Part shown: one piece after another, positions 62 to 38,306 of the stretch
How the letters are laid out: every line of letters begins with the position of its first letter
How positions within the stretch are numbered: position 1 is the stretch's first letter
NCBI GenBank assembly: GCA_030612405.1
Contig: JAUWNY010000001.1
Coordinates: 1-39,708 of the forward strand
Reading direction: 5' to 3'
From: Candidatus Methanophagales archaeon
GTDB taxonomy: Archaea; Halobacteriota; Syntropharchaeia; Alkanophagales; Methanospirareceae
Length of the DNA stretch: 39,708 bases
The notes under the pieces: generated by a model
What the model was told of the DNA's origin: nothing
Seen by the model: the letters and a program-made list of their open reading frames with translations, nothing else
Databases searched by the model: none
Translations under genes and position numbers: made by a program

Positions 62-925
62 TCATTTTATACCTCCCCACACATCCTTTATCGCATCTGA
101 TACTCGCCCATCCGAGAATTCAACCACAGGCATACCTGCAACCATCGCCTCGGTGACCACGGGGTCGTAAGGAATGTTTCCAACCATCTCCACTCCTCGC
201 TGCCGGCAAAACTCGGTAATCCTGTTGCTGTTCTCCTCATTAATGTCGTATTTGTTGATGCAGACGATTGAATCAATCCCAAAATGTCTGGTCACATCCA
301 GGATTCGTTCGAGGTCATGCAGTCCGGACATCGTGGGCTCGGTAACGATGAGTGCAAGGTCCACGCCAGTCAAGGACGCAATTACCGGACAGCCGATGCC
401 TGGTGCCCCGTCAATCAAAATGAGTTCACAACTTTCCTTTTCCGCAACCTGCTGTGCCGTGTTTCTAACAACGGTAACCAGCTTTCCAGACGCTTCTTCC
501 GCGATATTTAGCTGCGCATGAGCCATCATGCCATATTTCGTCTTTGATATAAAAGAATACCCAGAGACCCGCTCTTTAAGCGTAAGTGCCTCCTGCGGAC
601 ACGTAAACACACAGGCGCCACAACCCTCACAACGTGCGGGATTGACTGCATAACCTGATTCTTCGGTCAAAGCTATCGCATTGAATCTACATGTTTCTTC
701 GCATATTCCGCACTCGGTACACAGCGTTTTATCCATAACGGCAACTTTCAGGCCTTTAAACTCCTCTCTCTCTATGATTTCCGGATGCAACAGCAGATGG
801 AGGTCTGGTGCGTCCACATCGCAGTCTGCAATGACTTTGTTCTCTGCGAGGGCGGCGAACGAGCCCACAAGGGTTGTCTTCCCCGTGCCTCCTTTTCCAC
901 TAATAACCGTTAGTTGTTTCAACAC
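62..925 (-). CDS. MinD/CooC-family P-loop ATPase with inserted 2x[4Fe-4S] ferredoxin domain (COG1149-type)
   Basis: 287-aa ORF with a GTG start. Walker [10 protein letters not shown] lies near the N-terminus. Ferredoxin motifs [11 protein letters not shown] and [11 protein letters not shown] are present. MinD-like body with [10 protein letters not shown]. Paralog of 1009..1854. Confidence 0.85.
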
Positions 926-980
926 TTTTTCTTTTTCATAAAAAGAAAACCTGTGCTAAAAGAAAAATACAAAAAAAGGT

Positions 981-1011
981 TCTCGTGAAAATCTGTGTAA
1001 TCTTGTGGTTA
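981..1011. repeat. 31-nt intergenic repeat unit (copy a): tctcgtgaaaatctgtgtaatcttgtggtta
   Basis: Matches 18720-18750 at 30/31 positions. Its reverse complement matches 14741-14771 at 29/31. The terminal tta (1009-1011) is the stop codon of CDS 1009..1854. Confidence 0.8.
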
Positions 1012-1854
1012 TAAGAGAACTTTATCAATTATCCCCGCGAACTGCTCCTTCCACTCGGGCATCTCCTTCACAAATGGCACGCCCTCGGAATAGCACCGTG
1101 CTATCTGCCTGTCATACGGAATCTCAAGCAAAATCGGTATTCCCTCCTTCTCGCAGTGCTCATAGACTTTTCGATCCCCAATCCCCGCTTTATTTATCAC
1201 CACGCCAAAAGGGATCTTTAGCACCCTGAGCACCCCAATCGCAAGCCTCAAATCGTAGAGCCCAAACGGCGTGGGTTCAGTCACAAGCACGCAGTAATCA
1301 CTGCCTTGCACCGCAGCAATCACCGGGCATGCCGTTCCCGGCGAGACATCAATAATCACGGTCTTTTCTGGATTAAGTTCCTCTTTTACCTGGTCGATCA
1401 GCGGTGTTGCCATCACCTCTCCGATATTCAACACCCCGTACACGAGTTCAATGTCAATGTTGCCGTCACCGCTTTTTCCTGTTTTTATAACGCCAATCTC
1501 CCTTGATGCCTCGCTGATTGCATCCTGCGGGCATACCAGGGCGCATAACCCACAGCCGTGGCAAAGTTCAGGGAATATCATAACTTTTTTGGAAGGCACA
1601 ACAACAAGGGCGTTGTATTCACACGCTGCAGCACACTTCCCGCAGTAATCACACCGATCGTAATTGACCGTTGGCACCAGCGTATATGCCGGCTTTACCA
1701 CCTCGTTCACCGGATTAAGGAAGATATGTGCATTTGGCTCTTCAACGTCGCAATCGAGTAGCTGTACTTGTACGTTCGGGAGCGACAGCGCAAGATTAAC
1801 TGCTACGGTGGTCTTTCCCGTACCGCCTTTGCCACTTGCTACCGCAATAATCAT
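1009..1854 (-). CDS. MinD/CooC-family P-loop ATPase with inserted 2x[4Fe-4S] ferredoxin domain (COG1149-type), second paralog
   Basis: 281 aa. Walker [10 protein letters not shown]. Ferredoxin motifs CDYCGKCAAAC and CHGCGLCALVC. Same architecture as 62..925. Confidence 0.85.
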   Translation of the reverse strand: MIIAVASGKGGTGKTTVAVNLALSLPNVQVQLLDCDVEEPNAHIFLNPVNEVVKPAYTLVPTVNYDRCDYCGKCAAACEYNALVVVPSKKVMIFPELCHGCGLCALVCPQDAISEASREIGVIKTGKSGDGNIDIELVYGVLNIGEVMATPLIDQVKEELNPEKTVIIDVSPGTACPVIAAVQGSDYCVLVTEPTPFGLYDLRLAIGVLRVLKIPFGVVINKAGIGDRKVYEHCEKEGIPILLEIPYDRQIARCYSEGVPFVKEMPEWKEQFAGIIDKVLL

Positions 1855-1896
1855 CTGTTCACCGTTGTGCTGTGTTGCATTACGTTGCGAGCATTA

Positions 1897-2256
1897 TTAA
1901 TGCCGGTGCATTTTACACGCATTGGCATCGCTGGCTTCGACAAGCTTTCCGGCTTGAAAAGCCCTTATTGCTTCGCTCACCGTGCCACTGGCGCCCACAT
2001 ACACTTCTATCCCCAACTGCTCAAACATGCCGATTGCACGCGGTCCTAATCCCGAACAGAGCATTATTTCAGCACCTGCACCTGCTACGAGCTCCGGCGT
2101 ATTGCCTACACCGCCAAAATGTTCACCCGTGTTCTGCACAATTTCCACCTCGTTATTCACTATATCCACAACAGTAAACGTTGGCGCTCTTCCAAAGTGC
2201 TCGCTTACAAAATCGTCTAATCCTCCATTTCCCAGTGTTGGTACACATAGTTTCAT
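1897..2256 (-). CDS. NifX/NafY/NifB-C-terminal-like protein (dinitrogenase FeMo-cofactor-binding fold, COG1433-type)
   Basis: 119 aa. The pattern KLCVPT..G..D..VSEHFGRAPTFTVVD and GAEIMLCSGLGPRAIGMFEQLGIEVY is typical of stand-alone NifX-like domains. Confidence 0.8.
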   Translation of the reverse strand: MKLCVPTLGNGGLDDFVSEHFGRAPTFTVVDIVNNEVEIVQNTGEHFGGVGNTPELVAGAGAEIMLCSGLGPRAIGMFEQLGIEVYVGASGTVSEAIRAFQAGKLVEASDANACKMHRH

Positions 2257-2295
2257 ACTCTTACATTACCCCCTCTCTTTTTAATTTTCCTTTGC

Positions 2296-2463
2296 CTACT
2301 TGCAAAATGGACAACTACCGCCAGAACAACCGACATCCGCTGCCATACTGTTCTCCCCGTATAGCTTCGACCAGCACTCCTGGCAAACCATAATGCGTCC
2401 AAGCTCTTTGTGGTCTGCTTCCATTCTACTCCCTTCTTTTCCACACAGTTCGCATATACCCAT
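2296..2463 (-). CDS. Small Cys-rich protein (55 aa, zinc-ribbon-like), not in the supplied ORF track
   Basis: Hand translation gives MGICELCGKEGSRMEADHKELGRIMVCQECWSKLYGENSMAADVGCSGGSCPFCK. It has two CxxC pairs plus CxxxxCxxC. It fills the gap between 2256 and 2509 on the operon strand, and gggggt lies 9 nt upstream of the ATG. Confidence 0.45.
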   Translation of the reverse strand: MGICELCGKEGSRMEADHKELGRIMVCQECWSKLYGENSMAADVGCSGGSCPFCK

Positions 2464-2508
2464 TTTGTTTTACCCCCAGTTTCTAATTAACTCCTTCCTC
2501 TCCAAACT

Positions 2509-2826
2509 TTACTTTCTCAGTTCTTCCAATCTCTTCTTTATCTGCTCTAACTGGTCACCAAGCATCTTCGCCTGCGATTCAAGCATAGAAATCTCCTGTT
2601 CTTTTGGCACTGTCGGCATGCCCATTGGTGCAACAGGCGCGCCTGTCGGCACTTGCTGCTGTATCCATGAAGCAAACTGCGGCATCTGTCCTGTTTGAGC
2701 AAGATACTGCGCACCTGGCGGCATTCCCGTGGGAGTTCTACCTACCCAGCCTGGCGAATATCCAAACCTCATCCAGCCTGGCAAACCAGTCAGATAATAC
2801 ATGTTTCTCCATCTATTTCCTCCCAT
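2509..2826 (-). CDS. DUF5320-like protein (P/G/M-rich N-terminal part plus C-terminal coiled coil)
   Basis: 105 aa. The C-terminal heptad segment KEQEISMLESQAKMLGDQLEQIKKRLEELRK parallels the C-terminus of 3281..3913. Family assignment is from memory of the DUF5320 pattern. Confidence 0.6.
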   Translation of the reverse strand: MGGNRWRNMYYLTGLPGWMRFGYSPGWVGRTPTGMPPGAQYLAQTGQMPQFASWIQQQVPTGAPVAPMGMPTVPKEQEISMLESQAKMLGDQLEQIKKRLEELRK

Positions 2827-2853
2827 TTTTTTCTTTTCACCTCCTAAACTTTT

Positions 2854-3057
2854 TTACGGTCTTGTCATTTTAGACCCGCATTTCGGGCAAGTCTGCTGAT
2901 AGCATGACACCCCGACTTGATGTGGCATTGTATATCCGCAATTTGGGCATCTGCATTCTCCACCGGGTCCCAATCCACTGCCACCCATTCTTCCTTGCCC
3001 TTGACCTCCTCGTCCTATTCCTTGACCTCTTCCTCCTCCTCTTCCCATGCCACTCAT
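2854..3057 (-). CDS. Gly/Arg-rich mini-protein with C-terminal zinc ribbon
   Basis: 67 aa. The N-terminus is GRGGGRGQGIGRGGQGQGRMGG, followed by CRCPNCG...CPKCG. ATG start. One nt separates it from the stop of 3059..3274. Confidence 0.6.
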   Translation of the reverse strand: MSGMGRGGGRGQGIGRGGQGQGRMGGSGLGPGGECRCPNCGYTMPHQVGVSCYQQTCPKCGSKMTRP

Positions 3058-3058
3058 T

Positions 3059-3274
3059 TTATCTTATCCACCTCCCGTAAGAATACGGATAGCCATAATA
3101 TGGCACGGGGTATGTTCCCAGAGATGGAGCCATTGCACCATACATTCCTGTCCACCACCTTCTGGGAAGCCATGGGAAATTCCTGCAGTATGGATAAGGG
3201 TTGCCCATTCCCATACCTCTCCCGGGTCCAAAGCCAGACCAAAAACCTCTTCCAAAACCTCTTCCTCTTGCCAT
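3059..3274 (-). CDS. G/R/P/Y-rich mini-protein (resembles the N-terminal half of DUF5320)
   Basis: 71 aa, MARGRGFGRGFWSGFGPGRGMGMGNPYPYC.... This frame was chosen over two overlapping ORFs because it packs at 1 nt and 6 nt from its neighbours and shares their GRG composition. Confidence 0.45.
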   Translation of the reverse strand: MARGRGFGRGFWSGFGPGRGMGMGNPYPYCRNFPWLPRRWWTGMYGAMAPSLGTYPVPYYGYPYSYGRWIR

Positions 3275-3280
3275 TTTTTT

Positions 3281-3913
3281 TCACCCCCTTTTAAGTTCTT
3301 CTATTCTCTTCTTCACTTCTTCTAAATCATTCGCCAGTCTATTTGCCATGTTCGATAGTTCTTCGATTTCTTCTTCTTTCGTTCGAGGCGTTATTGGTGC
3401 CTGCGGCACTTGTGGCTGTGGTTGTGGTTGCGAAGGCATTGGTTGCTGCATGCCAAGTCCCATGCCCACGCCACGTCCTCTACCGCCACCTCGTCCTCCG
3501 CCCATGCCCATGCCAAATCCGCCACCTGGTGCAGTAGCACCCATACCCGCATGAGCAGCAACTGTCGAACCCCCCGCCTCGTTAAGCTTACCGCCTTTGT
3601 ACATCTCAACAGCTTCTTTCACCGTGCCATACGCACCGGTTGCGATTTTCACATCGGCGGTGGAAAGCACCTGAAAGGCATTGGGACCTATATTTCCTGA
3701 GATAAGCACGTTCGCTCCTTTATTCACTACTGTCTGCGCCGCTTGAATCCCTGCTCCTCCCGGTGCAGCGATCGCTTTGTTTGCCATCGCTTCGAACGCC
3801 ATCGTATCCGAATCAATGAATACAAAGTATTGACACCTGCCAAACCTTGGGTCTACCTGCGCATTCAAATCCCCTGTCGTTGCAGTTACGCACATCTTCA
3901 TCCTTCTTTTCAC
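3281..3913 (-). CDS. NifX-like domain fused to a GMG/GRG low-complexity linker and a DUF5320-like coiled coil
   Basis: 210 aa. The N-terminal ~115 aa carry DPRFGRCQYFVFID and GANVLISGNIGPNAFQVL (NifX-like). Next comes GGGFGMGMGGGRGGGRGRGVGMGLG and a QPQPQPQ tract, then KEEEIEELSNMANRLANDLEEVKKRIEELK. Confidence 0.8.
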   Translation of the reverse strand: MKRRMKMCVTATTGDLNAQVDPRFGRCQYFVFIDSDTMAFEAMANKAIAAPGGAGIQAAQTVVNKGANVLISGNIGPNAFQVLSTADVKIATGAYGTVKEAVEMYKGGKLNEAGGSTVAAHAGMGATAPGGGFGMGMGGGRGGGRGRGVGMGLGMQQPMPSQPQPQPQVPQAPITPRTKEEEIEELSNMANRLANDLEEVKKRIEELKRG

Positions 3914-3947
3914 CTTTTCCCTTTTTTTACTTTTTTTCCCTCTTTAT

Positions 3948-3963
3948 ATGAATATATATTCAT
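3948..3963. promoter_or_regulatory. 16-bp perfect palindrome ATGAATATATATTCAT, 35 bp upstream of the 3281..3913 start
   Basis: Self-complementary by direct reading. The 14-mer ATGAATATATATTC recurs at 5269-5282. It could be a TATA element, an operator, or both. Confidence 0.4.
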
Positions 3964-3982
3964 TACGATATAAAAAGGCAAT

Positions 3983-4849
3983 TTACTTCTTTTGTGTTTT
4001 ACCTTCCACAAATACCCGCACATTTTCCACTATGTGCTCAAACGCTTCCTTCACCTTCGATTCCTTTTGCATGACAAAAGGTGTGCCCGCATCCGCAGCT
4101 TCTACCATCTTCGGGTCGAGCGGCACTCTGCCGAGGAAAGGCACACCCAACTCGCTCGCCGCCCGCTCACCACCGCCGTATTTGAAAATGTTTATCTGTT
4201 TGCCGCAGTAAGGGCATGTAAATCCGCTCATGTTCTCGATTATCCCTATCACAGGTACTTTCAGCACACCCGAGAAGTTCACTGCCTTTCTCGAATCCAG
4301 TAATGCTAAATCCTGCGGTGTCGTAACGATTATCGCACCATCCACGTTTTTTATCAACTGCGCAACACTTAACGGTTCGTCCCCTGTCCCCGGCGGAAGG
4401 TCAACGACCAGATAGTCCAGCTCACCCCAATCCACGTCTGAGAGGAACTGTCGTATCGCATTCATCTTCATCGGTCCCCGCCAGATAATAGGAGAATCCC
4501 GGTCAGGCAGCAGAAACCCTATTGACATCGCTTTCAGCCTCGGTGTGACCAAAATTGGCGACATTTTATCCCCTGATACCTCTGGTCGCTTGTCCTCTAT
4601 TCCCAGTATCTTCGGCACGTCAGGTCCGTGTATATCGGCATCCATCAACCCCACGTCTAAACCCCTCATTCCAAGAGCAAAAGCGAGATTCGCTGCTACC
4701 GTCGTTTTCCCTACTCCCCCCTTTCCACTCATCACCATTATCTTGTACTTTACCTTCTCCATACTCGCTTTCAACGCCGCGTCTTCCTCCTTCCTCATCT
4801 TCTCTTTTTCTTTCTCTCCTTCCGTTCCCATAGTCATAGTCATAGTCAT
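3983..4849 (-). CDS. Mrp/NBP35/ApbC-family Fe-S cluster carrier ATPase
   Basis: 288 aa. Deviant Walker [11 protein letters not shown]. The motifs [17 protein letters not shown] and the cluster-bridging CPYCG are all typical of Mrp/NBP35. Confidence 0.9.
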
Positions 4850-4851
4850 AA

Positions 4852-5259
4852 TTATACCTTATCCTCGAAATTAAAAGAAGCTAAATGTCCTCTTCCTCCT
4901 CTGTGCTTTCCACCTCCACACCGAGCAGGCATTTTGCATTCCGCAAACACATAGCTCCCGCCCTCTATCCTTATGGCTTTCCCTTCGACAAAGGCTTCTG
5001 CTATTTTTCGATGTGCTTCAGTTATTATTCGATGGAACGTAGGCTGCGAAATATCCATTAACTTCGCCGATTCCGCCTGGTCGAGCCGCAAATAATCTTT
5101 CAGCCTTATGCTCTCTAACTCCTCCACCTTCAATATTTTTTCGGTTTTGGGATTATAGAAGCCCATCCCCCGTGCTCCTGCCCCTGCCATTGCCCTTGGC
5201 TCGAAGTAAAGGAAGTTTGGCTGAAAACCAACACATCTTACTCGTCTTGCATCACGCAT
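4852..5259 (-). CDS. DUF134 (UPF0251) family putative DNA-binding protein
   Basis: 135 aa. The N-terminus [18 protein letters not shown] matches the DUF134 signature. An HTH-like segment [31 protein letters not shown] is present. First gene of the minus-strand operon. Confidence 0.8.
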
Positions 5260-5268
5260 AATCCCTGT

Positions 5269-5282
5269 ATGAATATATATTC
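5269..5282. promoter_or_regulatory. Second copy of the ATGAATATATATTC motif, in the 67-bp divergent intergenic region
   Basis: Identical 14-mer to 3948-3961. It lies 10 bp upstream of the DUF134 ATG (5259) and 45 bp upstream of the ATG at 5327. Confidence 0.4.
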
Positions 5283-5326
5283 TCAGATATAAGTAAAATA
5301 AATAAAATAGGAGCTATATTAAAATC

Positions 5327-6610: not shown

Positions 6611-7027
6611 ATGTTACGATTTATTGGTGTGGTGGAGAAGGCGAACGAAAGGGGAATATCAAAGATACGAATTTTTGATGAATTTCGTGAGGGTTTGGAA
6701 GGATTAGATACCTTCTCGCATATTATCATCCTCTACGGGTTTCATTTACGAGCTACTGAGGAGAGAAGGAGGGTTTTAAAAGTAATTCCAATGGGGTGTG
6801 CGGGAAACCCAAAAGTGGGTGTGTTCGCCTCCAGGAGCCCAAGCAGACCTAATTGTATCGGATTGTGCGTAGCGGAACTGGCGAAACGGGAAGGGAATAT
6901 TTTATCGGTGAAAGGGCTCGACGCTTTTGAAGGCTCGCCGATAATCGACATTAAGCCGTACATCCCACGAATAGATGCATTCCCTGAAGCTGCAGTTCCG
7001 CAGTGGGCTCGTGCTCGTCACCCTTAA
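6611..7027 (+). CDS. TsaA/TrmO-like (UPF0066/YaeB) SAM-dependent methyltransferase domain protein
   Basis: 138 aa. GVFASRSPSRPNCIGLCVAELAKREGNILSVKGLDAFEGSPIIDIKPY matches the TrmO N-terminal beta-barrel signature. Confidence 0.75.
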   Translation: MLRFIGVVEKANERGISKIRIFDEFREGLEGLDTFSHIIILYGFHLRATEERRRVLKVIPMGCAGNPKVGVFASRSPSRPNCIGLCVAELAKREGNILSVKGLDAFEGSPIIDIKPYIPRIDAFPEAAVPQWARARHP

Positions 7028-7045: not shown

Positions 7046-7546
7046 ATGGACGTCAAGATAATTCGCAGTCAAAGAAGAAATAAAACGATAAGTGCACGAG
7101 AAGTGGATGGTGCCATTCACTTATACCTACCGGCGGCTATCTCGCGAGAGGAGGAGTTCAAGTACGTCCAGTGGGCGAAAAAGCGTTTCGAGTCGCGGCG
7201 ACGCAAGAACGAACTTACGGATAAAAATGCTGATGCCGTACTGGAACAGCGTGCTCGAGCACTCAACAAGCGGTATTTTGGTGGTGAACTTTCCTGGAAG
7301 CAGATGAGTTATACGACCGAGCAGAATACACGCACGTTCGGAACCTGTAACACGAGAACCAGAATAATCCGGATTTCCGACCGTCTGTTGAAAATGCCGA
7401 CATTTGTGCATGATTATGTTGTGGTGCATGAGCTTGCACACCTGAAGGTGCCACGACACGGACCCAAATTCTGGCAACTCGTGAATAGGTATCCAAAAAC
7501 CGAGCGAGCACGAGGGTATCTGATGGCGGTTGGGATGGGTGATTGA
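7046..7546 (+). CDS. DUF45/YgjP-like (M48/SprT-type) zinc metallopeptidase
   Basis: 166 aa. HExxH motif VVHELAHLKVPRHGPKFWQLV near the C-terminus, with the typical R-x-SxRxxR N-terminus. Confidence 0.75.
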   Translation: MDVKIIRSQRRNKTISAREVDGAIHLYLPAAISREEEFKYVQWAKKRFESRRRKNELTDKNADAVLEQRARALNKRYFGGELSWKQMSYTTEQNTRTFGTCNTRTRIIRISDRLLKMPTFVHDYVVVHELAHLKVPRHGPKFWQLVNRYPKTERARGYLMAVGMGD

Positions 7547-7611
7547 AAAAATGGAAAGAATAAATTTAATTTTAGATAGATGTAATAAGAAATAGAAAGT
7601 AGAAAGTAAAA

Positions 7612-10566
7612 ATGAATCCTGCAAATATTGTTGATTACCTGATAAAGGATATTAAGGAACGGCTTACGCTGGATGGTAAAAACAAAGTCTTTGAAGAAGG
7701 GAAAGAACTTCATTCTGAATTTATGAACGAGAAGGCGGAGCCAGAAGCATTTACGAGAGAATTCATGATTGACAAAATCCTCGATGCTTTTAGGTTGGAA
7801 AAACTGCCTGAGAAATCTTTTGAGACACCCAGTGGCTATCGCAGTGTAGATTACGGCATAAAGGGCAAAGGACACATGTTCCTGATTGAGGCAAAGCCTT
7901 TAAATGCTGATTTATTTGAAAAGGGTAAAGAAGGAGCTGTTAATCAAATAAAAGGCTTATTCAAACTTGCAGAAGTGAAGGAGAACTACGATTTTGGCGT
8001 GGCAAGTGACGGGTTGAGATGGGTATTCATTGACAAGCGTGGGAAAATAGTTGATGACCTGAAGTTAGTGGAGGATTTCGAAAAGATAAAGGAATACTCA
8101 GTAGGCAAGGAGAGAGTTGTTTCGGCGGAAACCGAAGAGGAGATAAGCAAGAAGTTTTACGACTGGTATAATGCGCTTTTGCACGGAGGCAGATATAAAG
8201 ACCATGAAAACAAGCTGAAGACCGTTTCTGAAGCCGATTGTCTGGTCAGCAATGTCCGTGGAGTGCAGGATTTGGATGAAAAGGAACAGATAGCGCAGGT
8301 AGTGATGAATCGGCTGATTTTTATCAAGTTCTTGCAGTCAAAAGGAATAATAGGTGAGGATATACTCCGATATTTGTTTGAAGTTAAAGAGGACATACTT
8401 ACAGCAAAGCTAAGACAATTGTTCTTTGGTGTGCTGAATACGCCAAAAGATGAGCGATTTGATGTTAATGAGCGGTTCCGAGAAATTCCGTACCTGAATG
8501 GGAGTTTGTTTGTTCACACCGAGGTTGAGAAGAGGAATGGGGATTATAAAATAAAAGCAGAGATTTTGAAGACGGTGATAGAGTTCTTAGACAGTTTCAA
8601 GTTCGTGCATAAGGAGCAGCTTGGGAACGAGGATTCCATAGACCCAGAAATTCTGGGCTATATCTTTGAAAGGACGATGACTGCCACGGACAGGAAGGGA
8701 ACAGGCGCGTATTATACCCCGAAACAAATAACAAGGTATATTTCCGAGAATACCATCTATTCTTACATAAATTACCGAACAAACGAATTTCTTAAGGAGA
8801 AGAAGGGCTACAAGGAAACTGAACTGGTCGAAGACATCGAGAAGTTATTTATCTTGCCCGCGACGACTCTGGAAGAAATATGGAAGCAGATAATACAAGA
8901 AATAAAGGTTCTGGATAATGCTTGTGGTTCTGGTGCGTTCTTGCTCACTGCAGCGAATATCCTGTTCGCGCTGAATAGAAGAATAGACGATAAATTGGGA
9001 CTGGGAAACTCGGACATCGCATTGAAGAAGTGGATTTTAGTGCATAATCTTTACGGTGTGGATATAAATCCGAGTGGGATAGAGATAGCGAAATTGAGGC
9101 TCTGGCTTTGGCTTGTTGATTCTTACGAGCCAGAACGCATAGAACCATTACCAAACATTGACTACAACCTCCGTGTGGGGAATAGTTTGATTGGATACGT
9201 GGATATAAATGACTTCAGGCAAACAAAACTCAATTTTTTGAACCATTTTATGGAAGAGGAAAAACCCACGCTGGATGAGTTTCTTAACGAGAGAAATCCG
9301 CTTCTACAAAAGTATAAAAGAGCGGAGGGAGAAGAAGCGAGGGGATTAAAAGATAAAATAAATGAGCTGGATGTGAAGATACAGAAGCTATTAAACGGGA
9401 ATCTTTATTTGAATTTCAGGGCAAGAAGAATAAAAATAAGCAAGGAAGATTTTCTACACCTGAAACCATTCCACTGGGGCTTTGAGTTCTATGACGTGTT
9501 TGATTCTGGAAAGCCAGAAGAGGAGCGAGGGTTCAATATAATCATCGGGAATCCACCTTACGTTGAGCTTAGCAAAGTTGGATATGGTTATCTACTTCCA
9601 GAATCGAGGAATTTGTATGATGCATTCATGAGGATTTCGATAAAAAAACTGCTTTACCCTGCGGGCATGTTTGGATTCATTCATGCGAACTCTGCCTATT
9701 GCCAGCCGAAATATAAAGCGCTGAGAAACTTCCTGAGGGAATATACAAACGATTTGACGATTATCAACTTTGCGATAAGACCACAACCAGTTTTTAAAGG
9801 TGTAATGCAAAGAACCGCTATTACGATATGTAAAAAGGATATTAGCGGCGCTAAAAGCGTCAAAACATCGAGATATCTTCGGCTCACCGAAGAAACCAGA
9901 AATAAAATCTTAAGTGAACCACCAATATACGATTGTAGTGAATTTGCATGGGATTTTGATGATTTTATACCCAAGATTGGAAGTGAAGAGGACTATAAAA
10001 TATTCAAAAAGGCGGTCAGTTGCCAGAAATCCTTAGGAGATATCCTAAGTCTAAATGGGAAAAAGGGCGTTTCTTTATTCTATCACGATAGCGGCGAATC
10101 GTATTGGACAAAGCTCTTAACTTACGAACCAAAAGGGATCAGGGACGGTAAGGAGGTCAAACCATCGCACTGGTTTGAGATAAAGGTAAATAGGGATTAT
10201 GCGGATTTTGTTACTTGTGCCGTAAACAGCACGCTGTTTTACTGGTTCTGGCTGACTATTTCTGATTGTAGAGATTTAACCCAAAACGTTATTAAACAGT
10301 TTCCAATCCCTTCTGCTGGTGCTATTTCCACTGATATGTCGAAAAAATTAAAAGGCTATGCTCGGAAATTAATGAAATGCTATAAAGAGAATTCTTATTT
10401 TGTGGAAAAAAGGAAAGGGTACAAATCACTGGAGTTCAAAGTGAACAGGTGCAAAAAGTTGATTAATGAAATTGACGCGATAATTGGAGAAATTTACGGA
10501 TTGACTGATGAAGAGATAGAATATTTAGTAGGATATGACCTGGAAATGAGGACGGAGAAGGATTAA
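7612..10566 (+). CDS. Single-chain Type IIG/IIL restriction-modification enzyme (PD-ExK nuclease + gamma-class N6-adenine methyltransferase + target-recognition region)
   Basis: 984 aa. Nuclease-like D..EAK in VDYGIKGKGHMFLIEAKP. GAYYTP motif, SAM motif I LDNACGSGAFLL and catalytic motif IV IIGNPPYVE. Long C-terminal region. Visibly A/T-rich relative to the flanks. Confidence 0.8.
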   Translation: MNPANIVDYLIKDIKERLTLDGKNKVFEEGKELHSEFMNEKAEPEAFTREFMIDKILDAFRLEKLPEKSFETPSGYRSVDYGIKGKGHMFLIEAKPLNADLFEKGKEGAVNQIKGLFKLAEVKENYDFGVASDGLRWVFIDKRGKIVDDLKLVEDFEKIKEYSVGKERVVSAETEEEISKKFYDWYNALLHGGRYKDHENKLKTVSEADCLVSNVRGVQDLDEKEQIAQVVMNRLIFIKFLQSKGIIGEDILRYLFEVKEDILTAKLRQLFFGVLNTPKDERFDVNERFREIPYLNGSLFVHTEVEKRNGDYKIKAEILKTVIEFLDSFKFVHKEQLGNEDSIDPEILGYIFERTMTATDRKGTGAYYTPKQITRYISENTIYSYINYRTNEFLKEKKGYKETELVEDIEKLFILPATTLEEIWKQIIQEIKVLDNACGSGAFLLTAANILFALNRRIDDKLGLGNSDIALKKWILVHNLYGVDINPSGIEIAKLRLWLWLVDSYEPERIEPLPNIDYNLRVGNSLIGYVDINDFRQTKLNFLNHFMEEEKPTLDEFLNERNPLLQKYKRAEGEEARGLKDKINELDVKIQKLLNGNLYLNFRARRIKISKEDFLHLKPFHWGFEFYDVFDSGKPEEERGFNIIIGNPPYVELSKVGYGYLLPESRNLYDAFMRISIKKLLYPAGMFGFIHANSAYCQPKYKALRNFLREYTNDLTIINFAIRPQPVFKGVMQRTAITICKKDISGAKSVKTSRYLRLTEETRNKILSEPPIYDCSEFAWDFDDFIPKIGSEEDYKIFKKAVSCQKSLGDILSLNGKKGVSLFYHDSGESYWTKLLTYEPKGIRDGKEVKPSHWFEIKVNRDYADFVTCAVNSTLFYWFWLTISDCRDLTQNVIKQFPIPSAGAISTDMSKKLKGYARKLMKCYKENSYFVEKRKGYKSLEFKVNRCKKLINEIDAIIGEIYGLTDEEIEYLVGYDLEMRTEKD

Positions 10567-23172: not shown

Positions 23173-24033
23173 ATGGACATAATAAAAGAGACAATAAAAG
23201 AGACGGAGAATCTGGGTATAAGTGCAACTCTTTCAAACGTAGTTATCACCAGGTTTGGTCCGTGGACGTTGAGCTATGTGAGATACGATGATGGTGAACT
23301 CGGATGCGGATGTGCGAACAATGAAGCGGAGAGATGGGGAATTCCAGAAGATGCATCGTTTATAAAAGACCTGCTCAATTTGAATGCTTACGATGCCGTA
23401 GACAAACTGGCGAGTTTAGAGAACAGCGTATTCATAAACTCGCTAAGGACTTCAATAACCTCTGCTCTCTCTTATAGGTTAATGAACGATGGAAACGAAT
23501 TGAAAAAAGAGGGATATGATGCTGAAGCCTACTATGCTCCAACCACTGCTCTTTTAGACCCTTCAAGATTTGTGAAAACGTTGGATAAAGTAGCGATAGT
23601 TGGTTTTCCCTCGTGGGCTATACACCTATATGCTGAGGTTGCAAATGAAGTGCGTGTTACCGAACTTATGGATTTGAAGCAGTTATCTGTTATTGATTTC
23701 GATGCTGATGAGGACTCAAACGTAAAAATATTTCCCGCTGATACGAATAAGGAAGTTCTAAGTAAGGCTGATGTTGTTTACCTAACTGGTGATACCGTAG
23801 TGAACGGCACAATAAATGAAATTCTCGAGTGCTCCAAAAATGCCAGATTACGAATAATCTACGGACCCTCATCGGCTTTTTATCCAAAGGTGCTTTTTGA
23901 ACGAGGTGTGGACGTTTCTTTGCCTATAATCTTTCCAAATACACCGGAGTTCAAAAGACGATTTGCACTAAGTCGAGGTTATTGGTATTTTATGAGGGAT
24001 GTAAAACAAATGTTAATAAAAAGGAGGGGATAA
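23173..24033 (+). CDS. DUF4213/DUF364 family protein ('putative heavy-metal chelation' enolase-N-like + Rossmann-like fold), copy 1
   Basis: 286 aa. N-terminal YVRYDDGELGCGCA (DUF4213-like). C-terminal VAIVGF...FPADTNKEVLSKADVVYLTGDTVVNGT...IIYGPSSAFYPKVLFERGVDV matches the DUF364 pattern. Confidence 0.7.
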   Translation: MDIIKETIKETENLGISATLSNVVITRFGPWTLSYVRYDDGELGCGCANNEAERWGIPEDASFIKDLLNLNAYDAVDKLASLENSVFINSLRTSITSALSYRLMNDGNELKKEGYDAEAYYAPTTALLDPSRFVKTLDKVAIVGFPSWAIHLYAEVANEVRVTELMDLKQLSVIDFDADEDSNVKIFPADTNKEVLSKADVVYLTGDTVVNGTINEILECSKNARLRIIYGPSSAFYPKVLFERGVDVSLPIIFPNTPEFKRRFALSRGYWYFMRDVKQMLIKRRG

Positions 24034-24034
24034 T

Positions 24035-25603
24035 ATGAAAAATAAGAAAAAAAATGCTTTTTGGGGTTGTATAATTGTGGGGATAGCTCTCGTAGGCGGT
24101 ATAATAATGGCGGGCTGTATAAGTCCACCAGAAGAAGTTCCCAAACAAGAACTGGTGGTTGGTATAAGCACAGATGTTGATAACTGGTATTTAGATAAGT
24201 TTCCTTATGGCGATGCGAGATTCGTGTGGTCACAGGTTTACGAAACTTTAGTACGATTAGATACAGATTTGAAGATACAACCAGGATTGGCGGAATACTG
24301 GGAAACCCCAGACGATGGAAGAACATGGGTATTTCATTTAAGGAAAGGAGTTAAATTCCACGACGGAACACCATTTAATGCGACAGCAGTGGTATTTTCG
24401 TACAGCAATATATCTTTCGTTAGAAAAGTTACACTTGGGAATGTTGACCATGTAGAAGCTCTCGATGAGTACAGTGTCAAATTTGTATCAAAGCGACCTA
24501 TACCCGTATCACATTATATCACGCATGTAGCATGGCCGATTATGAGTCCTACTTGTGTGGACGGAAAAGGAGAGTTCGTGAAACCAATTGGAACAGGACC
24601 ATTCAAATTTGAAAAGCAGATTAAAGACCAGGAAGTCGTGCTTGTAAGAAATGATGATTACTGGGGAGAAGAGCCAACCTTTGAGAAACTCATTTTTAAG
24701 GTAATTCCAGAGGTGGCGACACGTGTAATGGCTTTGGAGACCAAAGAAGTGGACATGATAATGAAAGTGCCGGAATTTGAAGTCGCGAGGTTAGAAGTGG
24801 AGCCAAATATCGAAGTATATAGGAAATTGACAACCTTCACTGACTTTTTACAATTTAACTGCGAAAAAGAACCTTTTAACGACACAAAAGTGAGAAAGGC
24901 AGTGGCATACGCGGTTGATACGGAAAAACTGGTTAAAACCGTTTTAGAGGATGTTGGAGAGCCAGCAAACGGCCGTCCTTTATCCCCCGTCATGTTGTAT
25001 TCGAAACAGGACCTCAAACTGTACAAATATAATCCAGAAAAGACTAAGGAATTATTGTCGGAAGCTGGCTGGAAAGACACCGATGGTGACGGAATAGTTG
25101 ATAAAGATGGAAAGCCATTCAAGGTGTCTCTCCTGGTGGAAAGAGGTGCTTGGACACCACCCCGCTTTATTCCAATGAGTGAAGCCATTCAGGGAGCGTT
25201 AAGAAAGGGGGGTATAGATGTAGAGATGCAAGTTCTGGAACCTGGAGCAGTCATAAAACTTGAAAGAGAAGGTAACTTTGACATGATCCTGAGGACAGGA
25301 TATTTTGTATGGGGTTCCTATCCAAGACACTTCTTTCTACATTATTCTAAATGTCCATACGGTCACTACAAAAACGAAGAATACGACAGACTTGTTGATT
25401 TGGCAGATTCGACGGTAGATACAAAAGAGCAAGAAAAGCTATACCACGAATTGCAGGACATGGTCATCGAAGAAGTCCCGGCATTTTATCTGGTTCACGA
25501 AGAAAAGATTGTCGCCGCGAATTCTTACGTAAAAGGGTATACTATAACAGCCGAAGACCCCTGGCTTAATCTCAAGGGCGTTTATCTGGAGGGAAAGACA
25601 TGA
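24035..25603 (+). CDS. ABC transporter substrate-binding protein, family 5 (NikA/OppA/DppA-type), copy 1
   Basis: 522 aa. N-terminal TM segment plus lipobox-like MAGC. Family-5 signatures LAEYWETPDDGRTWVFHLRKGVKFHDGTPFNA and GTGPFKF. Confidence 0.9.
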   Translation: MKNKKKNAFWGCIIVGIALVGGIIMAGCISPPEEVPKQELVVGISTDVDNWYLDKFPYGDARFVWSQVYETLVRLDTDLKIQPGLAEYWETPDDGRTWVFHLRKGVKFHDGTPFNATAVVFSYSNISFVRKVTLGNVDHVEALDEYSVKFVSKRPIPVSHYITHVAWPIMSPTCVDGKGEFVKPIGTGPFKFEKQIKDQEVVLVRNDDYWGEEPTFEKLIFKVIPEVATRVMALETKEVDMIMKVPEFEVARLEVEPNIEVYRKLTTFTDFLQFNCEKEPFNDTKVRKAVAYAVDTEKLVKTVLEDVGEPANGRPLSPVMLYSKQDLKLYKYNPEKTKELLSEAGWKDTDGDGIVDKDGKPFKVSLLVERGAWTPPRFIPMSEAIQGALRKGGIDVEMQVLEPGAVIKLEREGNFDMILRTGYFVWGSYPRHFFLHYSKCPYGHYKNEEYDRLVDLADSTVDTKEQEKLYHELQDMVIEEVPAFYLVHEEKIVAANSYVKGYTITAEDPWLNLKGVYLEGKT

Positions 25604-25658
25604 GCAGGAAAATGATTGCTTTGGATTGAATAAAAGAAGGAATTGCGTAACGTAAAAA

Positions 25659-26519
25659 ATGGGCATAATAAAAGATACGATAAAGGAGATAGAGAATCTG
25701 GGTATAAATGCAACTCTTTCAAACGTAGTCATCACCAGAATCGGTCCGTGGACATTGAGCTATGTGAGATATGATGATGGTGAACTCGGATGCGGTTGCG
25801 CAAACAACGAAGCGGAAAGAGAAGAGATTCCAGAAGACGTATCGTTTATAGAAGACCTGCTCAATTTGAATGCTTACGATGTCATAGACAAACTGGGGAG
25901 CTTGGAGAACAGCGTATTCATAAACTCACTAAGGGCTTCAATAGCTTCTGCACTCTCTTATAGGTTAATGAATGATGGAAACGAATTGAAAAAAGAGGGA
26001 TATGATGTTGAAGCCTTCTCTGCTCCAAACACACCTCTTTTAAACCCTTCAAAATTCGTGAAAACATCGGACAAAGTAGCAATGGTTGGATTTCACATGA
26101 TGACTACACCCCTGTGTGCAGAGGTTGCAAAGGAGGTGCATGTTACCGAGCTCATGGATTTGAAGCAGCTATTGCTTATAGATTTCAACGCTGATGATGA
26201 ATCTAACATAAAAATATTTCCTGCGGATAAGAGTAAGGAAGTTCTAAGTGGCGCTGATGTTGTTTACATCACTGGTGAGACCGTAGTGAATGGCACATTA
26301 AATGACCTTCTCGAGTTCTCCAAAAATGCCAGGACCAGAATAATTTATGGTCCCACTTCGGCTTTTTATCCAAAGGTGCTTTTTGAACGAGGTGTGGACG
26401 TTTCTTTGCCGATAATCTTCCCAAATACACCTGATTTTCGGAGACGATTCGCACTAAGCAGGGGTTATTGGTATTCTATGAGGGATGTAAAACAGATGTT
26501 AATAAAAAGGAGGGGGTAA
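25659..26519 (+). CDS. DUF4213/DUF364 family protein, copy 2 (tandem duplicate)
   Basis: 286 aa. It aligns gap-free with copy 1, with about 52 mismatches by manual count. Confidence 0.7.
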   Translation: MGIIKDTIKEIENLGINATLSNVVITRIGPWTLSYVRYDDGELGCGCANNEAEREEIPEDVSFIEDLLNLNAYDVIDKLGSLENSVFINSLRASIASALSYRLMNDGNELKKEGYDVEAFSAPNTPLLNPSKFVKTSDKVAMVGFHMMTTPLCAEVAKEVHVTELMDLKQLLLIDFNADDESNIKIFPADKSKEVLSGADVVYITGETVVNGTLNDLLEFSKNARTRIIYGPTSAFYPKVLFERGVDVSLPIIFPNTPDFRRRFALSRGYWYSMRDVKQMLIKRRG

Positions 26520-26520
26520 A

Positions 26521-28074
26521 ATGGAAAAGAAGAAAAAAATTGCGTTGTTGGTTTGTATAGTTGCGGGGGTGGCAATTGCAGTAGCTGGCTGTATAAGCCC
26601 ACCAGAAGAAGTTTCGAAACATGAATTAGTGGTTGGCATAAGCACAGATGTTGATAACTGGTATTTGGACAAGTTTCCCGGTGGAGACGCGAGATTTGTG
26701 TGGTCACAAGTTTACGAAACTTTAGTACGATTAGACACAGATTTGAATATACAGCCAGGATTGGCAGAATCGTGGGAAACACCTGATGATGGAAAAACAT
26801 GGATATTTCATTTAAGAAAAGGGATCAAATTCCATGATGGAACACCATTTAATTCGACCGCAGTTGTATTTTCATACAGTGATAAATCTTTCGCTAGAAG
26901 AGTTGCAATCGGGACGGTAGACCATGTAGAGGCTCTGGATGAATATAGTGTAAAATTTGTTTCAAAGCGACCTACGCCCGTACCACTTTATATCACGCAT
27001 GTGGCATGGCCCATTATGAGCCCCAGTTGTGTGGATGAGAAGGGAGAGTTCGTAAAACCAATTGGAACAGGACCGTTCAAATTTGAAAAACAGATAAAAG
27101 ACCAGGAAGTCGTGCTTGTAAGAAATGATGACTACTGGGAAGAGAAGCCAACCCTTGAGAAGGTCATTTTTAAGGTGATTCCTGAGGCGTCAACACGTGT
27201 GATGGCACTCGAAACTAAAGAAGTGGACATGATTATAAAGGTGCCGGAATTTGAAGTCTCGAGGTTAGAAAAGGAGTCAAATATCGAAGTATATAGGAAA
27301 CTAACAACCTTCACTGACTTTTTGCAATTTAACTGTGAAAAAGAGCCTTTTAATGACACAAAAGTGAGAAAGGCTGTGGCATATGCTATTGACACAGAAA
27401 AACTGGTAAACACCGTTTTAGAGGGTGTTGGAAAGCCGGCAAAAGGTCGTGCTTTTTCTCCTGTTATGTTGTATTCGAAACCAGATCTCAAACTGTATGA
27501 ATATGACCCAGAAAAGACTAAGGAATTATTATTAGAAGCTGGCTGGGAAGACACGGATGGTAACGGAATAGTGGACAGAGATGGAAAGCCGTTCAGGGTG
27601 ACTCTTTTGGTGGAAAGAGGCGCTTGGGCACCACGCTGGATTCCAACGGCTGAAGCTATTCAAGGAGAGTTAAGAAAGGTGGGAATAGATATAGAAATAC
27701 AAGTTCTGGAAAGTGGAGCAGTTACAAAGCTTGAAAGAGAAGGTAACTTTGATATGATGCTGAGGTCAGGATATTTCGTATGGGGACCTTATCCAAGACA
27801 CTTCTTTGTGCATCATTCTAAATCTCCATACGGTCACTACAAAAACGAAGAATACGACAGATTGGTTGATTTGGCAGACTCAACGGTAGATACAAAAGAA
27901 CAAGAAAAGTTATACCACGAATTACAGGAGATGGTCGTTGAAGAAGTCCCGGCATTTTATCTGGTTCATGAAGAGAAGATTGTCGCAGCGAATTCATACG
28001 TAAAAGGATATATTATCACAGCCGAAGATCCCTGGCTCAATCTCGATGGCGTTTACATGGAGGAGAAGAAATGA
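26521..28074 (+). CDS. ABC substrate-binding protein, family 5, copy 2 (tandem duplicate of copy 1)
   Basis: 517 aa. Lipobox-like VAGC. Highly similar to 24035..25603 along its whole length. Confidence 0.9.
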   Translation: MEKKKKIALLVCIVAGVAIAVAGCISPPEEVSKHELVVGISTDVDNWYLDKFPGGDARFVWSQVYETLVRLDTDLNIQPGLAESWETPDDGKTWIFHLRKGIKFHDGTPFNSTAVVFSYSDKSFARRVAIGTVDHVEALDEYSVKFVSKRPTPVPLYITHVAWPIMSPSCVDEKGEFVKPIGTGPFKFEKQIKDQEVVLVRNDDYWEEKPTLEKVIFKVIPEASTRVMALETKEVDMIIKVPEFEVSRLEKESNIEVYRKLTTFTDFLQFNCEKEPFNDTKVRKAVAYAIDTEKLVNTVLEGVGKPAKGRAFSPVMLYSKPDLKLYEYDPEKTKELLLEAGWEDTDGNGIVDRDGKPFRVTLLVERGAWAPRWIPTAEAIQGELRKVGIDIEIQVLESGAVTKLEREGNFDMMLRSGYFVWGPYPRHFFVHHSKSPYGHYKNEEYDRLVDLADSTVDTKEQEKLYHELQEMVVEEVPAFYLVHEEKIVAANSYVKGYIITAEDPWLNLDGVYMEEKK

Positions 28075-29660: not shown

Positions 29661-29678
29661 AAACAGGAGGTAAAAAAC

Positions 29679-30149: not shown

Positions 30150-30151
30150 AA

Positions 30152-32246: not shown

Positions 32247-32248
32247 AA

Positions 32249-33805: not shown

Positions 33806-33807
33806 AA

Positions 33808-38239: not shown

Positions 38240-38306
38240 GTATATTAATTGGAAAGTTTATCTTGGTAAAAGCACTTCTTTTCTAAAAGGCACACTAAAC
38301 TAACAA

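Follow-up and report, generated by a model that had tools for sequence, protein, structure and literature searches.

What do ten co-directional genes at one end of an archaeal contig do together, when they combine a helix-turn-helix protein, an Mrp-type carrier ATPase, two NifX-like proteins, two MinD-type ATPases with ferredoxin inserts and four mini-proteins? The genes (g1 to g10, Table 1) lie at the start of the window that we analyzed, the whole 39,708-nt stretch of contig JAUWNY010000001.1 from a Candidatus Methanophagales (ANME-1) archaeon. We suggest that this operon is probably the ANME-1 version of the orange protein (ORP) cluster of Desulfovibrio, an ancient module for the handling of iron-sulfur (metal-sulfide) material that archaeal and bacterial anaerobes have in common. 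The initial annotation of the DNA described an operon for ATP-driven metallocluster handling that does not serve nitrogen fixation, and this description is supported, being compatible with the known ORP data and with the synteny described below, by which the co-transcribed module is conserved. The ORP complex has been known since 2011 and its protein since 2000-2004, with no agreed function.

Kinship with the Desulfovibrio ORP cluster

Orthology was tested by blastp against two loci (L086 and L087), found with the crystallised D. gigas orange protein (PDB 2WFB) as the query. These loci encode ORP relatives 68-75% identical to 2WFB, in the order DUF134, Gly/Arg-repeat mini-protein, ORP, MinD-ferredoxin, MinD-ferredoxin, NifX and Zn-ribbon; the closest relatives of the D. 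gigas ORP are thus likewise accompanied by a DUF134 protein and a Gly/Arg-repeat mini-protein. The N-terminal domain of g3 is 46-47% identical to these ORP relatives, g1 is 36% identical to the DUF134 protein encoded beside them, and g8 is 29-31% identical to the second NifX of the same loci. The g9 protein is 42-45% identical to the first MinD-ferredoxin of the ORP loci versus 31-32% to the second, and g10 is 46-49% identical to the second versus 31-33% to the first. At the level of sequence, g1, g3, g8, g9 and g10 were shown to be one-to-one orthologous to genes around bona fide orange-protein genes. The best PDB match of the g3 N-terminal domain is 2WFB itself (1.6e-19), which is also the top Foldseek match of the g3 AlphaFold model (TM 0.89, 40% identity).

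The term "uncharacterised", first applied to the system, has to be dropped, since the orthologous Desulfovibrio complex has been pulled down and its MrpORP protein studied in vitro (PMC6345978). In that complex, Orp3 and Orp4 are MinD-like with two [4Fe-4S] motifs each, Orp5 is a homologue of a small [2Fe-2S] protein, Orp8 is the orange protein with the IPR003731 "Di-Nase" domain, and Orp9 is MrpORP; a physiological complex is made up of the MinD-ferredoxin pair together with ORP, Mrp and the small Cys protein, and in vitro the subcomplex of Orp3, Orp4 and Orp8 receives Fe-S clusters from MrpORP (PMC6345978). The cluster, described in D. vulgaris, D. alaskensis and D. gigas, also encodes Orp7. 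The ANME-1 operon resembles the cluster in its ORP-type protein (g3), the paired MinD-ferredoxin ATPases, whose order is kept (g9, g10), an additional NifX-like protein (g8), the Mrp/NBP35 protein with CxxC (g2) and the restriction to anaerobes; the small Cys-rich g5, encoded upstream of the ATPase region, is a candidate counterpart of Orp5. Archaeal relatives have been noted before: Archaeoglobus homologues AF2378-2380 were linked to ORP in 2014 (PMC3949148), and an archaeal origin by horizontal transfer was proposed in 2007, as quoted in PMC8359166.

The two versions differ in regulation. The Desulfovibrio regulator is the PAS-sigma54 activator OrpR (with IHF), whereas the ANME-1 operon has DUF134 and no OrpR-type gene is found in the window; unlike Desulfovibrio, an archaeon cannot use sigma54. 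OrpR is reportedly restricted to Deltaproteobacteria (PMC8359166) and therefore defines the Desulfovibrio subtype, not the cluster. The Desulfovibrio genes form two divergent operons, whereas the ANME-1 genes form a single co-directional one. In contrast to MrpORP, g2 has no fused Di-Nase domain. The ANME-1 ORP, unlike its Desulfovibrio counterpart, continues into a low-complexity cationic tract and a coiled coil of the DUF5320 type. The mini-proteins g4, g6 and g7, as well as a radical-SAM gene and a small hydrophobic open reading frame (ORF) downstream, are further differences from the Desulfovibrio cluster.

Synteny and genomic context

We scanned GTDB species genomes and analyzed the 80 best-scoring loci (16 archaeal and 64 bacterial, from many phyla), counting partners within 6 kb of the MinD-ferredoxin anchor, mostly on the same strand; the counts are lower bounds, because many contigs are short. 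A second MinD-ferredoxin gene (the MFb partner) is adjacent in 77 of the 80 loci, any NifX-like gene is present in 72, the ORP-like type (NXa) in 67 and the second NifX type (NXb) in 51. Mrp was detected in 36 loci, the mini-protein family of g5 (m5) in 33, DUF134 in 21, DUF5320-like proteins in 18 and an orthologue of the downstream radical-SAM gene in 13. The initial annotation proposed a comparison of gene neighbourhoods between genomes, and conserved synteny was clearly found, across 80 species of archaea and bacteria; the carriers include Methanosarcina, Methanohalophilus and Methanothrix.

The remaining neighbour ORFs were clustered without preselection and then checked against Pfam, with sigma54 activators (GAFTGA motif) and methyltransferases judged from their sequences. 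The families found include NifU_N/IscU (25/80, always co-directional), Zn_ribbon_8 (21/80), DUF5320 proper (16/80), sigma54 activators (16/80, namely 16 of the 64 bacterial loci and no archaeal one), a metallo-beta-lactamase (MBL) hydrolase (14/80), a third, divergent NifX-like protein (14/80), an ARMT1-like protein (13/80), a methyltransferase (9/80), DUF364/DUF4213 (8/80), Fur (8/80), a FeoB-like protein (6/80, judged by eye), TrmO_N (5/80) and DtxR (4/80). The identified neighbours, with NifU/IscU, Fur, FeoB and DtxR among them, therefore point to iron and Fe-S homeostasis as the context and not to nitrogen fixation, methanogenesis, cell division or the transport of Mo or Cu.

An expanded bacterial ORP-like cluster, all in one direction, was observed in L089 (2448-14219; also in L090 and L091). 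Its order is DUF134, NifX, PAS-sigma54 activator, C_GCAxxG_C_C, m5, DUF5320, NifX, TrmO_N, ARMT1-like, MinD-ferredoxin, Zn_ribbon_8, radical SAM, methyltransferase, MinD-ferredoxin, NifU_N and Mrp.

The synteny also bears on whether the ten genes belong together. Chance juxtaposition, or several unrelated units, could be argued from the palindrome and the 69-nt gap between g2 and g3, since both hint that g1-g2 and the genes from g3 onward are transcribed as two or more units. In 80 species of many phyla these families recur together on a single strand, with several pairs fused elsewhere, and chance juxtaposition is effectively refuted by these synteny and fusion data.

The census also bears on the divergent neighbour of g1, which was correctly named in the initial annotation as methanogenesis marker 15 (Mmp15; 629 bits versus a cutoff of 456). 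Its divergent position, 67 nt from the operon, had led to the speculation that the operon performs ATP-driven assembly or delivery of a nitrogenase-L-cluster-like cofactor for the complex that activates methyl-coenzyme M reductase (MCR), with Mmp15 as the partner. A radical-SAM gene does follow g10, [8Fe-9S-C]-type clusters are present in the MCR activation complex (PMC12176620), and in M. voltae two NifX-like proteins of the IssA clade are encoded within about ten locus tags of the NifB homologue Mvol_0696 and are co-induced with it on pyrite (PMC9431491). However, the activation paper names NifB, and Mmp15, NifX-like and MinD-like proteins are not listed in the complex (PMC12176620). Mmp15 adjoins none of the 80 loci, including those of Methanosarcina, Methanothrix, Methanohalophilus, Methanocellaceae and other ANME-1, and the NifX-like domains of g3 and g8 are of the ORP/IssA type, far from NifX/NafY. 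Most carriers (64 of 80) are bacterial, and we know of no MCR in bacteria. We consider the MCR reading very improbable, and a tempting but unsupported link is thereby removed.

The same radical-SAM gene qualifies another statement. The window was said to contain no radical-SAM NifB core; this holds in so far as the enzyme is not NifB, but a radical-SAM gene does follow g10 and was not seen, because the window edge cuts the operon. Its identity as NifB was rejected, as it matched PF04055 only and no NifB model at E<=1e-3. The best NCBIfam model is MoaA (51 bits versus a cutoff of 284), with weak similarity also to viperin and PflA, and no curated family was matched for this ORP-associated gene. 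Its orthologues in the census score 142-246 bits, often abut the MFb gene and carry the motif CxxxCxYCQ. A longer contig of the same sequence (L002) shows how the operon goes on beyond window position 1: the 329-aa radical-SAM gene overlaps the g10 stop by 4 nt and is followed by a 128-aa hydrophobic ORF, the two together occupying L002 11790-13158; the ORF was seen only in ANME-1. Another radical-SAM protein, Mvol_0698, is encoded near Mvol_0689-0696 in M. voltae and is also raised on pyrite (PMC9431491).

Carriers, ATPases and a possible iron-sulfide scaffold

The NifX-like proteins had been annotated as carriers of FeMo-co/NifB-co-type clusters, which the Foldseek comparison does not support: g3 and g8 are of the ORP/IssA type, not of the NifX/NafY type. 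They share the Pfam domain PF02579 and the general fold with NifX, NafY and the NifB C-terminal domain. True NifX or NafY identity was rejected, since NifX (9IAN) and NafY (1P90) matched only at E of about 3-6e-3 with 14% identity. No nif genes were detected among the scanned ORFs of the window and, in contrast to the NifX/NafY systems, NifH, NifD, NifK, NifE, NifN and NifB are all absent from the window and operon; unlike the nitrogenase carriers, the cluster occurs in non-diazotrophs. The g8 protein belongs to the TM1816/PH0822 subgroup (PDB 1T3V/1O13, about 2e-19); its motif EHFGRAP is free of Cys, and its last residues are CKMHRH.

The g3 protein is distinguished by its tail. In the AlphaFold2 model, the domain (5-113) has a pLDDT of 80-94, residues 114-174 are below 50 and a helix (179-209) reaches 85-92. 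The tail (residues 116-170) is predicted to be disordered, with an isoelectric point (pI) of 12 and a Gly/Arg/Met-rich composition, and it is followed by the confident 30-residue helix; the C-terminus matches DUF5320 (PF17253) above the gathering score (36.3 bits versus a cutoff of 27). A C-terminal tail of at least 35 aa is present in 24 of 82 ORP-like proteins versus 1 of 57 second-NifX proteins. The recurring order in the ORP-like tails is HFGMG, (GMGR)n, a Pro/Gln linker and the DUF5320 coiled coil, and in some tailed ORP-like proteins the coiled coil is replaced by the m5 Cys-ribbon.

This architecture recalls IssA of P. furiosus (PF2025), an iron-sulfur storage protein that forms thioferrate nanoparticles. 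In IssA the IPR003731 domain leads into a tail that is first Pro-rich and then rich in Gly, cationic and aromatic residues, and this tail was proposed to enclose the anionic thioferrate (PMC5524996). The IssA tail has 70 aa with 15 Gly, 7 cationic, 14 aromatic and 11 Pro residues and a pI of 10.7; an uncharacterised "IssX" clade comprises IssA homologues of non-thermophiles with Gly-rich tails of high pI, and MTH1175, which is among the best PDB matches of g3 (1.2e-15), was placed in the IssA clade by its authors (PMC5524996). Like IssA, g3 has the IPR003731 domain followed by a disordered Gly-rich cationic tail, and the looser description of the IssX tail (Gly-rich, high pI) fits g3. The g3 tail differs from that of IssA in its Met/Gly/Arg-rich composition, nearly devoid of aromatics, and in its terminal coiled coil. 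In addition, a tail-like module (g4) is encoded as a separate gene, and dedicated ATPases, not reported for IssA, are present in the g1-g10 operon. Homologues of the IssA clade were found in 110 of 132 Methanosarcinales genomes (PMC8351635), and Mvol_0689 and Mvol_0693, the IssA-clade proteins of M. voltae, whose locus tags differ by four, are both induced on pyrite, where a thioferrate-like electron paramagnetic resonance signal increases as well (PMC8516115, PMC9431491).

The handled material may be a different one, however. The operon could handle thiometallates (Mo/W/Cu-sulfide), buffering or detoxifying thiomolybdate, thiotungstate and copper in sulfidic habitats or feeding Mo/W cofactor synthesis. 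The D. gigas ORP, to whose close relatives g3 is 46-47% identical, was isolated with a Mo-Cu-sulfide cluster (PMC6345978), and a role in molybdoenzyme cofactor synthesis was suggested for A. fulgidus (PMC3949148). Methionine is abundant in the (GMGR)n tails, and Cu(I) is typically bound by tracts of this kind. MoaA is the closest, though weak, match of the associated radical-SAM enzyme, but the score is far below the model cutoff, as noted above. The census points away from thiometallates, with NifU, Fur, FeoB and DtxR as neighbours and no recognised Mo/W or Cu transporter among the 22 most recurrent families, only some of them identified. Taken together, we regard thiometallate handling as unlikely.

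Among the mini-proteins, g4 (pI 10.5; Gly 21%, Arg 13%, Trp/Tyr/Phe 25%, Pro 13%) mimics a free IssA tail in its composition and has homologues in ANME-1 and Methanocellaceae loci (dN/dS 0.23). The g5 protein has an N-terminal Gly/Arg tract and a C-terminal ribbon of six Cys and one His, CxCPxCG...PH...C...CPxCG (dN/dS 0.11-0.14). Its family, m5, follows the pattern MPRGDGTGP...G/R-rich...CxCPxCG..PH..PC..CPxCG..MxRE and yielded 2,247 matches in the profile search, almost none of them with a Pfam domain; low-complexity artefacts were ruled out by the invariant Cys/His columns. In the 33 census loci, m5 usually lies directly upstream of the MinD-ferredoxin pair; in bacteria it was found at that position beside a sigma54 activator (e.g. 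L039, L040 and L055), and the ribbon is fused behind NifX-like domains in L020, L059 and L066. No named Desulfovibrio protein is among the 2,247 matches, and the locus of P0451, a recurrent m5 member, proved to be an expanded ORP-like cluster of bacteria instead of a canonical D. vulgaris locus. The g6 protein combines an aromatic/Gly/Pro-rich N-terminal half with a C-terminal coiled coil paralogous to the g3 C-terminus (dN/dS 0.09-0.12), while g4 and g5 have no DUF5320 match in Pfam. The g7 protein has the Cys pattern CxxC...CxxC...C...CxxC, and its orthologue in the ANME-1 relative L001 is 80% identical (dN/dS 0.15). No homologue of g7 was detected by phmmer in the 80 GTDB loci, and it was seen only in ANME-1; it is possibly analogous to the Zn_ribbon_8 proteins of 21 of these loci.

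The g2 protein has GKGGVGKT at residue 42 and CPYC at residue 212, and its PF10609 match spans 1-245 of 246 model positions (337 bits), which places it in the Mrp/NBP35 group. The best NCBIfam model is NF041136, MrpORP, at 374 bits, below the cutoff of 450 and covering model positions 1-249 of 365 only: the C-terminal Di-Nase domain is missing, and NifX-like domains are encoded separately downstream, in g3 and g8. Fused and unfused Mrp forms are intermixed in the tree of the MrpORP authors (PMC6345978), and Mrp-NifX fusions are present among the GTDB loci. With Mrp, ApbC, Nbp35 and Cfd1, g2 shares the deviant Walker A motif and the CxxC, here CPYC, which binds a bridging [4Fe-4S] cluster in these carriers; unlike Nbp35 and MrpORP, it has no N-terminal Cys motif. 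Its embedding in the ORP operon suggests a dedicated client.

The g9 and g10 proteins contain two CxxCxxCxxxC motifs each. Invariant in the g9 family (MFa) are the eight ferredoxin Cys, and Cys176, seven residues after the Walker-B Asp169, is nearly so; Asp125 and Cys132 of NifH have the same spacing. The ferredoxin inserts start right after the conserved switch-I motif (D34, D36-E38, P40). The MinD-ferredoxin family comprises 871 clusters (50% identity) at E<=1e-30, and in about 30 of the top 150 representatives MFa and MFb are joined in tandem in one chain of about 600 aa (e.g. among P0121-P0143), which argues for a heterodimer with g10 as the presumed partner of g9. Together with the Mrp-NifX fusions, these chains lend indirect support to a putative physical complex. 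N-terminal extensions of about 150-300 aa were observed on the MinD-ferredoxin proteins P0145, P0165, P0173, P0184 and P0215. With the SIMIBI ATPases (NifH, BchL and CfbC for electron transfer, CooC and HypB for metal insertion, MinD for positioning), g9 and g10 share the deviant Walker A motif with the signature lysine, and their activity is therefore expected to depend on dimerisation. Unlike these relatives, each subunit carries a two-cluster ferredoxin inserted after switch I, and the MFa/MFb dimer is apparently obligately heteromeric, made of two paralogues or of one fused chain; neither a partner of the MinC/MinE type nor a helix for membrane targeting was seen.

A role in cell division or positioning was first proposed for the Desulfovibrio ORP complex, with the MinD-like ATPases placing the septum or another cellular structure. 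OrpR inactivation leads to morphological defects in D. vulgaris, with a cell-division role discussed (PMC8359166), MrpORP localises to the cell pole (PMC6345978), and g9 and g10 are of the MinD/ParA class. Against this, each member contains two [4Fe-4S] motifs and is associated with carriers of metal clusters and with genes of Fe-S biogenesis, and no recognised division gene is among the 22 most recurrent neighbour families, of which only some were identified. The authors now call the ORP role unclear (PMC8359166), and a morphological defect could be secondary to Fe-S deficiency. A positioning or cell-division role appears quite unlikely to us.

For the ANME-1 version of the ORP cluster, we propose that g2 would load [4Fe-4S] clusters into g9 and g10, which would act as a heterodimeric nucleotide-switched ATPase of the MinD/NifH class. 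The conserved switch-II Cys at the position of NifH Cys132 and the ferredoxin inserts would couple ATP binding or hydrolysis to electron or cluster transfer, with g3, the carrier of the ORP type, and g8, the other NifX-like protein, as the partners. The (GMGR)n tract and coiled coil of g3, together with g4 (IssA-tail-like), g5 (probably Fe-S binding) and g6, may form a multivalent scaffold that holds anionic iron-sulfide species, as proposed for thioferrate on the IssA tail, and so provides a chargeable and dischargeable buffer or store. Regulation of the unit would be by g1, via the GAATATATATTC palindrome before g1 and g3, and the downstream radical-SAM enzyme would be a recurrent accessory.

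A broader version, which we put forward as doubtful, would make the ORP-type operon a general anaerobe "ferritin equivalent", a protein-templated iron-sulfide (thioferrate-like) store. The cationic (GMGR)n and Gly/Arg/aromatic tracts and the DUF5320 coiled coils (g3, g4, g6 and the g5 N-terminus) would condense anionic Fe-S polymer, the heterodimeric g9/g10, loosely like NifH, would fill the store or empty it by reduction under the control of ATP, and the DUF134 regulator, with the same ligand-binding module, would sense the fill state. If true, the store would feed the very high Fe-S demand of methanogens and ANME, possibly including NifB-made clusters for MCR activation, at which the co-induced neighbourhood of M. 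voltae hints, and the ORP-complex function and the IssA/IssX puzzles would merge into one system.

Several points weigh against the iron-sulfur assignment and the scheme built on it. The ORP was isolated from D. gigas with the Mo-Cu cluster [S2MoS2CuS2MoS2]3-, not with Fe-S (PMC6345978), and the only reported Desulfovibrio phenotype is morphological, related to cell division, with a role that its authors call "still unclear" (PMC8359166). The g3 tail is Met-rich with about 1% aromatics, unlike the Trp/aromatic-rich tail of IssA, and could be equally suited to soft metals such as Cu(I). Only two or three Cys are present in g3 and g8 as possible ligands. The g5 protein is a candidate homologue of Orp5/Dde_3197 by its position, which the sequence check did not confirm. 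The heterodimer and its ATP-coupled redox activity are inferred from fusions and motifs only, and the census is confined to the 80 best-scoring loci.

The operon and its 80 relatives tie the ORP complex to IssA-type storage through the tails, the free tail-like mini-proteins, m5 and the iron-related neighbours. Biochemical data on Fe-S storage of the IssA type come from a single hyperthermophile, as far as is known. The hypothesis of ATP-gated Fe-S storage and delivery becomes testable in tractable methanogens, and ten to twelve "hypothetical" genes are assigned in ANME-1, which is genetically intractable.

Gene calls, candidate operator and the rest of the window

All ten ORFs were found in the window ORF check as first annotated, with gaps from g1 to g10 of 2, 69, 6, 1, 27, 45, 39, 42 and 83 nt in order, and the domains named at the outset (DUF134, Mrp, two NifX-like, two MinD with ferredoxin) were recovered by profile searches. 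The mini-proteins, counted initially as "three or four", are encoded by four real genes, each preceded by a ribosome-binding site of the GGAGG/GGGGG type. Measured against ANME-1 relatives, the dN/dS of the mini-ORFs (0.09-0.23) compares with 0.10-0.20 for the large genes, and by this ratio g4-g7 are under purifying selection. For g3, the ATG of codon 5 (window 3901) is the more probable start, since its homologues open with MKICVTA.

Table 1. Genes and candidate control elements of the operon, with positions in the window
Feature	Position	Strand	Description	Match or remark
g1	4852..5259	-	DUF134 helix-turn-helix protein, 135 aa	PF02001 5.6e-22
g2	3983..4849	-	Mrp/NBP35-type Fe-S carrier ATPase, 288 aa	PF10609 6e-101
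g3	3281..3913	-	ORP-type domain + cationic tract + Pro/Gln linker + DUF5320 coiled-coil helix	Nitro_FeMo-Co 9e-23, DUF5320 1.3e-8
g4	3059..3274	-	71-aa cationic mini-protein	no Pfam/NCBIfam family above threshold
g5	2854..3057	-	67-aa Gly/Arg + Cys-ribbon mini-protein, family m5	no family above threshold
g6	2509..2826	-	105-aa DUF5320-like mini-protein	PF17253 26.5 bits versus cutoff 27 (borderline)
g7	2296..2463	-	55-aa mini-protein, 7 Cys	no family above threshold
g8	1897..2256	-	second NifX-like protein, 119 aa	PF02579 2e-22
g9	1009..1854	-	MinD/ParA-type ATPase with 2x[4Fe-4S] ferredoxin insert, "MFa"	CbiA/MinD profile
g10	62..925	-	paralogous MinD/ParA-type ATPase with 2x[4Fe-4S] insert, "MFb"	CbiA/MinD profile
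radical-SAM gene, first 21 codons	1..65	-	overlaps g10 stop (ATGA)	
palindrome TGAATATATATTC(TCA)	5270..5285		11-26 nt upstream of g1 start	candidate operator/promoter element
perfect 16-nt palindrome ATGAATATATATTCAT	3948..3963		in 69-nt g2-g3 gap	second copy of element

The g1 protein, with two Cys and a Gly/Arg tail at its C-terminus, is likely to regulate transcription locally. Fusions of DUF134 with the m5 Cys-ribbon occur in P0430, P0454 and others, and P0098 of the ANME-1 relative L001 is a natural DUF134-ORP-DUF5320 fusion of 336 aa; g1 therefore probably senses the same ligand as the ribbon or the ORP domain. P0098 (L001 8001-9011) opens a compact second form of the cluster, followed by a g7-like 55-aa gene, NifX and two MinD-ferredoxin genes, and counterparts of Mrp, g4, g5 and g6 are absent from this form. 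The structure search found no solved DUF134 structure, and the literature search on DUF134 and DUF5320 returned nothing relevant.

The 67-nt intergenic region between g1 and the divergent Mmp15 gene holds the first palindrome. In the 39.7 kb, its 13-mer occurs only upstream of g1 and in the g2-g3 gap (0.04 occurrences expected; 0 of 100 shuffles), and the palindrome is kept at equivalent positions in the ANME-1 loci L001, L006 and L007 and is absent from the other 87 loci. Its presence before g1 and again before g3 suggests two co-regulated promoters, with the second copy as a putative second promoter or operator for g3 onward. A 14-nt inverted repeat (window 3936-3981, 86% complementary, 18-nt loop) brackets the perfect palindrome of the g2-g3 gap and could be a g1-g2 terminator or an extended operator. 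In the literature searched we found no description of the tails, g4, the m5 family, the DUF134 fusion, the palindrome as operator candidate or the ORP-associated radical-SAM gene.

Mmp15 is followed, after 9 nt, by a TrmO_N/TsaA-like gene (window 6611-7027, plus strand; 138 aa, TIGR00104 132 bits versus a cutoff of 93). The ORP-type clusters L043, L059, L066, L079 and L081 contain TrmO_N genes with 36-49% identity to this gene, and one was also found in L089-L091; the association may therefore be functional. A SprT/YgjP-like metallopeptidase gene (166 aa) and a gene for a 984-aa MmeI/Eco57I-type DNA methyltransferase with weak similarity to BREX PglX follow (window 7046-10566, plus strand), where the GC content drops to 39-43%. 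The methyltransferase gene is probably a type IIL/IIG restriction-modification or defence gene between housekeeping genes. The genes of the window also include PAN and Hef.

Directly upstream of cfbE (coenzyme F430 synthase, 257 bits versus a cutoff of 250) we observed a co-directional island (window 23173-39668, plus strand) with two DUF364 "heavy-metal chelation" genes, four SBP_bac_5 (NikA/Opp-type) binding proteins, a PNPOx-like gene and ABC permeases and ATPases. Adjacent radical-SAM genes (30152-31219 and 31209-32246) and an O-methyltransferase gene (33808-34824) lie in the same island. ANME-1 uses 17(2)-methylthio-F430, and a 2023 study reported that its single canonical methylthiotransferase is not the source of this cofactor, whose enzymes were described as "yet to be discovered" (PMC10702137). 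The radical-SAM and methyltransferase genes of the island are candidates for this step.

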